A DNA stretch of 64,000 bases from Escherichia coli (GTDB taxonomy: Bacteria > Pseudomonadota > Gammaproteobacteria > Enterobacterales > Enterobacteriaceae), in NCBI RefSeq assembly GCF_044647545.1, contig NZ_CP172818.1. One strand, 5' to 3'. Positions 21,199 through 64,000 of the stretch are shown in pieces. Numbering within the stretch: the first letter of the stretch is position 1; the number at the start of each line of letters is the position of its first letter. Below the pieces are notes generated by a model. It was given only the letters and a program-made list of their open reading frames with translations, was not told the origin of the DNA and did not search any database. The translations under genes were made by a program, and so were the position numbers.

Positions 21199-21243
21199 AG
21201 AACACAGCAATTTTGCGTTATCTGTTAATCGAGACTGAAATAC

Positions 21244-22668
21244 ATGAAAAAAACCACATTAGCACTGAGTGCACTGGCTCTGAGTTTAGGTTTGGCGTTA
21301 TCTCCGCTCTCTGCAACGGCGGCTGAGACTTCTTCAGCAACGACAGCCCAGCAGATGCCAAGCCTTGCACCGATGCTCGAAAAGGTGATGCCTTCAGTGG
21401 TCAGCATTAACGTAGAAGGTAGCACAACCGTTAATACGCCGCGTATGCCGCGTAATTTCCAGCAGTTCTTCGGTGATGATTCTCCGTTCTGCCAGGAAGG
21501 TTCTCCGTTCCAGAGTTCTCCGTTCTGCCAGGGTGGCCAGGGCGGTAATGGTGGCGGCCAGCAACAGAAATTCATGGCGCTGGGTTCCGGCGTCATCATT
21601 GATGCCGATAAAGGCTATGTCGTCACCAACAACCACGTTGTTGATAACGCGACGGTGATTAAAGTCCAACTGAGCGATGGCCGTAAGTTCGACGCGAAGA
21701 TGGTTGGCAAAGATCCGCGCTCTGATATCGCGCTGATCCAGATCCAGAACCCGAAAAACCTGACCGCAATTAAGATGGCGGATTCTGATGCACTGCGCGT
21801 GGGTGATTACACCGTAGCGATTGGTAACCCGTTTGGTCTGGGCGAGACGGTAACTTCCGGGATTGTCTCTGCGCTGGGGCGTAGCGGCCTGAATGCCGAA
21901 AACTACGAAAACTTCATCCAGACCGATGCAGCGATTAACCGTGGTAACTCCGGTGGTGCGCTGGTTAACCTGAACGGTGAACTGATCGGTATCAACACCG
22001 CGATCCTCGCACCGGACGGCGGCAACATCGGTATCGGTTTTGCTATCCCGAGCAACATGGTGAAAAACCTGACCTCGCAGATGGTGGAATACGGCCAGGT
22101 GAAACGCGGTGAGTTGGGTATTATGGGCACTGAGCTGAACTCCGATCTGGCGAAAGCGATGAAAGTTGACGCCCAGCGCGGTGCTTTCGTAAGCCAGGTT
22201 CTGCCGAATTCTTCCGCCGCGAAAGCGGGCATTAAAGCGGGTGATGTGATCACCTCACTGAACGGTAAGCCAATCAGCAGCTTTGCCGCACTGCGTGCTC
22301 AGGTGGGCACTATGCCGGTAGGTAGCAAACTGACCCTGGGCTTATTGCGCGACGGGAAGCAGGTTAACGTGAACCTGGAACTTCAGCAGAGCAGCCAGAA
22401 TCAGGTTGATTCCAGCACCATCTTCAACGGCATTGAAGGCGCTGAGATGAGCAACAAAGGCAAAGATCAGGGCGTGGTAGTGAACAACGTGAAAACGGGC
22501 ACTCCGGCTGCGCAGATCGGCCTGAAGAAAGGTGATGTGATTATTGGCGCGAACCAGCAGGCAGTGAAAAACATCGCTGAACTGCGTAAAGTTCTCGACA
22601 GCAAACCGTCTGTGCTGGCACTGAACATTCAGCGCGGCGACAGCACCATCTACCTGTTAATGCAGTAA
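21244..22668 (+). CDS. degP: periplasmic serine endoprotease/chaperone DegP (HtrA), 474 aa
   Basis: Signal peptide MKKTTLALSALALSLGLALSPLSATA; catalytic GNSGGAL; two PDZ domains. Confidence 0.96.
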   Translation: MKKTTLALSALALSLGLALSPLSATAAETSSATTAQQMPSLAPMLEKVMPSVVSINVEGSTTVNTPRMPRNFQQFFGDDSPFCQEGSPFQSSPFCQGGQGGNGGGQQQKFMALGSGVIIDADKGYVVTNNHVVDNATVIKVQLSDGRKFDAKMVGKDPRSDIALIQIQNPKNLTAIKMADSDALRVGDYTVAIGNPFGLGETVTSGIVSALGRSGLNAENYENFIQTDAAINRGNSGGALVNLNGELIGINTAILAPDGGNIGIGFAIPSNMVKNLTSQMVEYGQVKRGELGIMGTELNSDLAKAMKVDAQRGAFVSQVLPNSSAAKAGIKAGDVITSLNGKPISSFAALRAQVGTMPVGSKLTLGLLRDGKQVNVNLELQQSSQNQVDSSTIFNGIEGAEMSNKGKDQGVVVNNVKTGTPAAQIGLKKGDVIIGANQQAVKNIAELRKVLDSKPSVLALNIQRGDSTIYLLMQ

Positions 22669-62838: not shown

Positions 62839-63411
62839 GTGGCGAAGAGCGTACCCGCAATTTTTCTTGACCGTGATGGCACCATTAATGTCGATCACGG
62901 CTATGTCCATGAGATCGACAACTTTGAATTTATCGACGGTGTTATTGACGCCATGCGCGAGCTAAAAAAAATGGGCTTTGCGCTGGTGGTAGTAACCAAC
63001 CAGTCTGGCATTGCTCGCGGTAAATTTACTGAAGCACAGTTTGAAACGCTGACCGAGTGGATGGACTGGTCGCTGGCGGACCGCGATGTCGATCTGGATG
63101 GTATCTATTATTGCCCGCATCATCCGCAGGGTAGTGTTGAAGAGTTTCGCCAGGTCTGCGACTGCCGCAAACCACATCCGGGGATGCTTTTATCGGCACG
63201 CGATTATTTGCATATTGATATGGCCGCTTCTTATATGGTGGGCGATAAATTAGAAGATATGCAGGCAGCGGCTGCGGCGAACGTGGGAACAAAAGTGCTG
63301 GTGCGTACGGGTAAACCTGTTACGCCTGAAGCAGAAAACGCGGCGGATTGGGTGTTAAATAGCCTGGCAGACCTGCCGCAAGCGATAAAAAAGCAGCAAA
63401 AACCGGCGTAA
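62839..63411 (+). CDS. gmhB: D-glycero-beta-D-manno-heptose-1,7-bisphosphate 7-phosphatase (190 aa), GTG start
   Basis: (V)[62 protein letters not shown] (HAD motif DRDGT). Confidence 0.93.
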
Positions 63412-63454
63412 TGATTAAAAGATGAGCGGTTGAAATAAAAATGCATTTTTCCGC

Positions 63455-63482
63455 TTGTCTTCCTGAGCCGACTCCCTATAAT
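63455..63482 (+). promoter_or_regulatory. rRNA operon P1 promoter with upstream A/T-rich UP element
   Basis: TTGTCT (63455-63460) - 16 nt - TATAAT (63477-63482); upstream aaataaaaatgcattttt; near-identical to rrnB P1 core. Confidence 0.8.
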
Positions 63483-63564
63483 GCGCCTCCATCGACACGG
63501 CGGATGTGAATCACTTCACACAAACAGCCGGTTCGGTTGAAGAGAAAAATCCTGAAATTCAGGG

Positions 63565-63592
63565 TTGACTCTGAAAGAGGAAAGCGTAATAT
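63565..63592 (+). promoter_or_regulatory. rRNA operon P2 promoter
   Basis: TTGACT (63565-63570) - 16 nt - TAATAT (63587-63592). Confidence 0.7.
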
Positions 63593-63632
63593 ACGCCACC
63601 TCGCGACAGTGAACTGAAAGCCGCGTCGCAAC

Positions 63633-63645
63633 TGCTCTTTAACAA
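63633..63645 (+). promoter_or_regulatory. boxA antitermination element in rRNA leader
   Basis: tgctctttaacaa matches boxA consensus TGCTCTTTAACAA. Confidence 0.8.
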
Positions 63646-63776
63646 TTTATCAGACAATCTGTGTGGGCACTCGAAGATACGGATTCTTAACGTCGCAAGA
63701 CGAAAAATGAATACCAAGTCTCAAGAGTGAACACGTAATTCATTACGAAGTTTAATTCTTTGAGCATCAAACTTTT

Positions 63777-64000
63777 AAATTGAAGAGTTTGATCATGGCT
63801 CAGATTGAACGCTGGCGGCAGGCCTAACACATGCAAGTCGAACGGTAACAGGAATCAGCTTGCTGATTCGCTGACGAGTGGCGGACGGGTGAGTAATGTC
63901 TGGGAAACTGCCTGATGGAGGGGGATAACTACTGGAAACGGTAGCTAATACCGCATAACGTCGCAAGACCAAAGAGGGGGACCTTCGGGCCTCTTGCCAT
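63777..64000 (+). rRNA. rrsH: 16S ribosomal RNA, 5' 224 nt (continues beyond window)
   Basis: aaattgaagagtttgatcatggctcagattgaacgctggcggcaggcctaacacatgcaagtcgaacggtaacagga... canonical enterobacterial 16S 5' end; operon assigned as rrnH by position after gmhB. Confidence 0.95.

Follow-up and report, generated by a model that had tools for sequence, protein, structure and literature searches.

At the end of the window, i.e., the whole stretch of 64,000 nucleotides of Escherichia coli DNA that was analysed, the gmhB gene is followed directly by the promoters, the leader and the 5′ part of an rRNA operon (Table 1). By sequence and orthology, the stretch from 63412 to 64000 holds two tandem sigma-70 promoters, a boxB–boxA–boxC series, the leader strand of the 16S leader-trailer helix and the start of 16S rRNA. 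Since the upstream neighbour is gmhB, the operon was identified as rrnH. A sequence-only reading had begun the region at 63412, directly behind the gmhB stop codon (63409–63411), and had proposed a P1 promoter of the form TTGTCT-N16-TATAAT with an A/T-rich UP element, a P2 promoter, a boxA and the first 224 nt of 16S rRNA. All of these elements were found at the positions listed, P2 as TTGACT-N16-TAATAT and boxA as an exact copy, while the length of the 16S part agrees with the extent of the Rfam match (64000 − 63777 + 1 = 224).

Table 1. Features at the head of the rrnH operon. Positions are those of the window; offsets given with a sign are relative to the predicted P1 start (Fis sites and UP element) or to the mature 16S 5′ end (helix h0).
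Feature	Position	Strand	Description
gmhB (D-glycero-beta-D-manno-heptose-1,7-bisphosphate 7-phosphatase)	62839..63411	+	ORF of 190 aa; named from the annotation of identical genomes
Candidate upstream Fis site	63350..63364		Centre at −134, inside gmhB; exact match to GNNYRNNWNNYRNNC
Candidate Fis site I, GATTAAAAGATGAGC	63413..63427		Centre at −71; exact match to the degenerate consensus GNNYRNNWNNYRNNC
P1 UP element, TGAAATAAAAATGCATTTTTC	63431..63451 (−60 to −40)	+	81% A+T; aligns with the rrnB P1 UP element
rrnH P1 core	63455..63482	+	−35 TTGTCT (63455–63460), 16-bp spacer, −10 TATAAT (63477–63482)
Discriminator, GCGCCTCC, and predicted P1 start, A63491	63483..63491	+	G+C-rich; start by homology with rrnB P1
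rrnH P2 core	63565..63592	+	−35 TTGACT (63565–63570), 16-bp spacer, −10 TAATAT (63587–63592)
boxB hairpin	63603..63629	+	GCGAC...GUCGC stem with a large loop; MFE −9.4 kcal/mol
Leader strand of the predicted 16S leader-trailer helix (RNase III substrate)	63631..63688	+	Pairs with trailer nt 1548–1599
boxA, UGCUCUUUAACAA	63633..63645	+	Exact; same in all seven operons
boxC, UCUGUGUGGG	63658..63667	+	Exact match to the boxC string of PMC10250234; invariant in the paralogue alignment
Helix h0, leader strand	63766..63774 (−11 to −3)	+	11-bp helix with 16S nt 7–17, cofold prediction
rrsH 16S rRNA, first 224 nt, cut by the window edge	63777..64000	+	Rfam RF00177 (SSU_rRNA_bacteria), model 1–221, 132.5 bits, E 7.6e-39

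The region was aligned with the upstream regions of all seven K-12 rrn operons, giving eight sequences, and by this alignment P1 and P2 each have an orthologue in every one of the seven. The tandem organisation of the two promoters is known for rrn operons (PMC4696680). For P1, the −10 hexamer is the same in every K-12 operon, and across the P1 core the window does not differ from K-12 rrnH. The P1 pattern, searched with one mismatch allowed, has its sole match in the 64 kb here, where 0.13 would be expected. A generic promoter scan of the 2-kb region returned 5 sites against 2.3 ± 1.4 in shuffled sequences, which is not significant alone, so that P1 and P2 were assigned by their orthology with characterised rrn promoters.

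The sequences that flank the P1 core were also compared. The A+T content of the UP element stands against 48% for the whole window. In the discriminator, GCGCC is unchanged in all seven operons. The start column, an A in the window, is occupied by G in rrnD; transcription of rrnD starts with GTP, which fits the G at this position.

Two exact matches to the degenerate Fis consensus were found upstream of P1. The nearer one, whose counterpart in the alignment is GGTTGAATGTTGCGC of rrnB P1, starts two bases past the gmhB stop codon, and its centre is placed like that of rrnB P1 Fis site I. The consensus has a background of 1.75 matches per kb in the window, so that single matches are weak evidence; those at −71 and −134 are consistent with Fis sites but are not proof of them. 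The primary source for the UP and Fis elements of the seven rrn P1 promoters, including that of rrnH, is reportedly Hirvonen et al. 2001. In gel shifts by Maeda et al., the number of rrnH Fis sites known from earlier reports was confirmed (PMC4696680). In a reporter study, the promoter region with the lowest activity of the seven was that of rrnH, to which H-NS bound (PMC4696680). In another study, rrnH was relatively up-regulated under nutrient limitation (PMC6312700).

P2 lies 110 bp downstream of P1. Its −35 hexamer, TTGACTCTG, is identical in all seven operons, and its −10 hexamer is TAATAT in rrnH, rrnE and rrnD and TATTAT in rrnA, rrnB, rrnC and rrnG. By homology, the P2 start is presumably near 63600; the literature search gave no usable published hexamers or start site for rrnB P2. 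Directly upstream of the P2 −35, at 63551–63563, there is a perfect 5-bp inverted repeat, CCTGAAATTCAGG, which belongs to the rrnH/E/D type only and was scored as a minus-strand terminator-like site, within chance expectation. Four terminator-like sites were obtained in the scan, all on the minus strand and in a number within chance expectation. On the plus strand, the same generic promoter/terminator scan gave no terminator-like site between the gmhB stop and P1, and gmhB transcription may therefore run into the rrnH promoter region.

In the leader, the elements follow each other in the nut-like order of boxB hairpin, boxA and boxC. At one pair of the boxB stem, four of the eight sequences compared have A-U and the remaining four have C-G. 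The boxA motif TGCTCTTTAACAA has its only exact copy in the window at the position listed in Table 1. This element is the binding site of NusB/NusE (S10) that nucleates the rrn antitermination complex (PMC10250234, PMC4807359). The boxC falls within the 5′ strand of the predicted leader-trailer helix. From the end of boxA to the start of boxC, 12 nt were counted here versus 18–19 nt reported in PMC10250234, a gap which probably reflects different element boundaries.

The leader-trailer duplex was evaluated with the trailer of MS6198, a near-identical genome, as the trailer is located beyond the window end. The predicted duplex reached −67.5 kcal/mol, compared with −23.7 ± 3.8 kcal/mol (minimum −35.5) for 300 shuffled trailers. 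It covers the leader stretch from −113 to −89, which is essential for 30S biogenesis (PMC10250234). A second predicted pairing, immediately before the 16S start, corresponds to helix h0 as defined in PMC10250234.

The 16S rRNA match scored well above the gathering score of the Rfam model (50), and the annotated 16S start of MS6198 maps to 63777, with the mature 5′ end reading AAAUUGAAGAGUUUGAUCAUGGCUCAG. Within nt 1–224, five differences from K-12 rrnH were found, all in helix 6 (positions 79, 80, 89, 90 and 93). This helix (V1; nt 76–93, 63852–63869) carries U79:A90, C80:G89 and G76:C93 in the window. All seven apical pairs are kept in all eight sequences, and the allele is fully compensated. 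The pair 79:90 is G-C in five sequences, A-U in two and U-A in one, the latter being the window, while the K-12 copies have G-C or A-U. The helix-6 allele is in the minority, since its exact 71-nt sequence was found in 245 of the 5,432 matching E. coli records. Beyond the window, at nt 1002–1023, the 16S rRNA of the MS6198 rrnH locus carries a helix-33 allele unlike those of K-12 rrsH and rrsB, i.e., a third variant. Kurylo et al. tied the helix-33 region to stress-response phenotypes and proposed specialised ribosomes for K-12 rrsH.

From established knowledge of rrn operons, P1 would be a strong, growth-rate-regulated promoter with a near-consensus core and a suboptimal 16-bp spacer. Its A/T-rich UP element would contact the C-terminal domains of the RNA polymerase alpha subunits, and Fis bound at the upstream sites would activate it. 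The G+C-rich discriminator would lead to short-lived open complexes, through which P1 would respond to the initiating ATP, ppGpp and DksA; its sensitivity to the initiating NTP, ppGpp and DksA would be set by the 16-bp spacer together with this discriminator. P2 would give basal transcription at a low growth rate (PMC4696680). Once the leader is transcribed, boxA on the nascent RNA would bind NusB/NusE, which with NusA, NusG, S4 and SuhB would form the Rho-resistant antitermination complex (PMC6614801, PMC10250234). The boxC would be held near the RNA exit channel, ready for trailer pairing, and boxC with its flanks would then pair with the trailer 3′ of 16S rRNA into the leader-trailer helix needed for 30S assembly. 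RNase III would cut this helix about 115 nt before the mature 5′ end. Two further functions can be conceived from the sequence, namely, that the leader fragment running from P1/P2 to the RNase III site, the part modelled in Rfam as Ysr197, accumulates as a discrete, trans-acting RNA and, separately, that the helix-6 and helix-33 alleles of rrsH mark lineage-specific specialised ribosomes of the kind put forward by Kurylo et al.; taken jointly, these proposals, which draw on coincidences of sequence, are considered very improbable.

The assignment of the locus to one particular operon was examined with the paralogue alignment and with the gene order. Invariant in the eight sequences are TATAAT with GCGCC, the P2 −35 and, with the exception of two single bases, the stretch from boxA up to the 16S gene. 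The P1–P2 spacer, the P2 −10 and boxB (63483–63632) occur in two sequence types, one in rrnH/E/D and one in rrnA/B/C/G, and the sequence upstream of the P1 −10 is operon-specific. For instance, the P1 −35 is TTGTCT in the window and in rrnH, TTGTCA in rrnA, rrnB, rrnC and rrnG, TTGCGG in rrnE and TTGTGC in rrnD. Such a mosaic of paralogues is consistent with what gene conversion among rrn copies would produce.

The window tracks K-12 rrnH almost base for base. The rrnH operon of K-12 MG1655 (gmhB-rrsH-ileV-alaV-rrlH-rrfH-aspU) has the same flanking gene, P1, A at the predicted start, UP/Fis region, P2, boxB, boxA and boxC, as well as the same downstream gene content as seen through the identical genome. 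The two sequences differ in three places between the gmhB stop and the 16S start: by a GT/AC pair (two bases) in the stop-codon region, at A63614 in the boxB loop, where K-12 rrnH has G, and at G63767, where K-12 rrnH has A, the odd one out among the operons. Compared with the promoters of rrnB, which are experimentally the best characterised, the candidate Fis site at −71, the presence of a UP element, the 16-bp spacer, TATAAT, GCGCC, the A at the predicted start, the P2 TTGACT, the boxB–boxA–boxC order and the leader from boxA onwards are shared. In contrast, rrnB has a −35 of TTGTCA instead of TTGTCT, a UP element of different sequence, a P2 −10 of TATTAT instead of TAATAT and a different boxB stem with a compensated pair; the P1–P2 spacer of rrnA, rrnB, rrnC and rrnG is of the other sequence type and about 8–10 bp longer than here.

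Starting at the P1 −10 and up to the 16S gene, the window is almost the same as rrnE and rrnD, and this stretch by itself does not distinguish them from rrnH, so another of the six remaining rrn operons, such as rrnE or rrnD, might have been considered. Nevertheless, the −35, UP and Fis regions match K-12 rrnH only. The gmhB gene upstream is preceded by metNIQ, as in the rrnH neighbourhood, and in the identical genomes tRNA-Ile and tRNA-Ala, then tRNA-Asp and dkgB, lie downstream. The sequence upstream of the −10 and the synteny together rule out another paralogue, for which the remaining chance is negligible.

The identity of the region as rrnH was extended to complete genomes. Many complete E. 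coli genomes match positions 63300–64000 with 100% identity, and their annotation gives gmhB and then 16S rRNA; the arrangement in K-12 is likewise gmhB–rrsH. The last 25 kb of the window, with the gene content dnaE ... proS, metQIN, gmhB, are 100% identical in at least 12 complete E. coli genomes, ECONIH1 and IMT16316 among them, while an identity of at least 99% over this length was reached in only 94 records. Against MS6198, there is 1 mismatch in the last 7,701 nt, and the annotated order of the operon in that genome is 16S (1542 nt), tRNA-Ile, tRNA-Ala, 23S, 5S and tRNA-Asp, then dkgB. The body of the operon is known from this annotation, the window itself stopping at 16S nt 224, and the order matches the published gene content of rrnH (PMC4696680).

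Given that the window ends at 16S nt 224, the completeness of the operon is invisible within it, and an orphan or truncated fragment, i.e., a promoter with a 16S 5′ stub left by a rearrangement, was considered. This is extremely unlikely and is ruled out by the identical complete genomes: at least 12 agree at 100% over the last 25 kb, the complete operon follows in MS6198, and 5,397 of the 5,426 E. coli genomes have a place that spans at least 80% of the 701-nt query (63300–64000).

Therefore, 63412–64000 is read as the gmhB–rrsH intergenic region plus the 16S 5′ end of the E. coli rrnH operon, with a probability of about 0.97 from the sequence data, and nothing in the sequence, orthology and folding comparisons argues against it. 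The proposal of the sequence-only reading, an rrn promoter region with a 16S 5′ end, is supported and can now be made specific to rrnH; the downstream continuation as 16S rRNA, for which it had suggested extending the sequence, is borne out by the full 1542-nt gene and the rest of the operon in MS6198.

The Rfam search of the whole window also gave plus-strand hits above the gathering score for t44 RNA (30086–30172, 83.5 bits) and for the HtrA 5′ UTR thermometer (21204–21249, 77 bits). An Rfam match of another kind overlaps the promoters and the leader. The model of Ysr197 (RF02849, Yersinia sRNA 197) matches at full length at 63408–63655, with 144.3 bits and E 8e-36. For Yersinia pseudotuberculosis, Ysr197 was described as an RNA that is expressed and is ‘strongly repressed during stationary phase’ (PMC4376681). 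The full-length match and the reported expression would favour a discrete small RNA, a Ysr197 homologue with its own function that overlaps the rrn promoter. Nevertheless, the score is below the gathering threshold of 167, and full-length, sub-threshold matches (78–145 bits) are equally present upstream of all seven K-12 rrn operons. With its ends 83 nt ahead of the P1 start and a little beyond boxA, the model consists for about a third of promoter DNA that is not transcribed from P1. Furthermore, the conservation is accounted for by the constraints on promoters and nut site, and stationary-phase repression with top prevalence is the behaviour to be expected of a multi-copy rrn leader. An independent sRNA gene was thus rejected, with hardly any probability left to it, on the grounds of the sub-threshold score, the untranscribed promoter DNA in the model and its presence at seven rrn operons.

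As judged from the sequence, what the Ysr197 family describes seems to be the promoter and leader of rrn operons and not a separate sRNA. Its reported expression in exponential phase and its first place in prevalence among Rfam sRNAs (PMC9029176) would both be explained in this way. That the bacterial ‘sRNA’ reported as most prevalent coincides with the rrn promoter/leader is a mildly useful by-product of the analysis.

The head of rrnH described here, comprising the regulatory region, the leader and the rrsH 5′ end, is ordinary and already fully described. Few regulatory elements of bacteria have been studied as thoroughly as the rrn P1/P2 promoters, boxA antitermination and the 16S leader-trailer helix, and the present copy, being identical to the sequences of many published E. 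coli genomes, has little weight as a discovery. Its value lies in fixing the origin of the window in the E. coli chromosome, at dnaE...metNIQ-gmhB-rrnH, and in letting the annotator know that the window ends inside a multi-copy repeat.

The upstream gene differs slightly from its K-12 counterpart. The gmhB product has 190 aa here versus 191 aa in K-12 (..KPA* versus ..KPAQ*), with the stop one codon earlier, and the stop-region sequence is CCGGCGTAATGA in the window versus CCGGCACAATGA in K-12 rrnH. Candidate Fis site I of rrnH P1 follows this stop-codon change at a distance of two bases.
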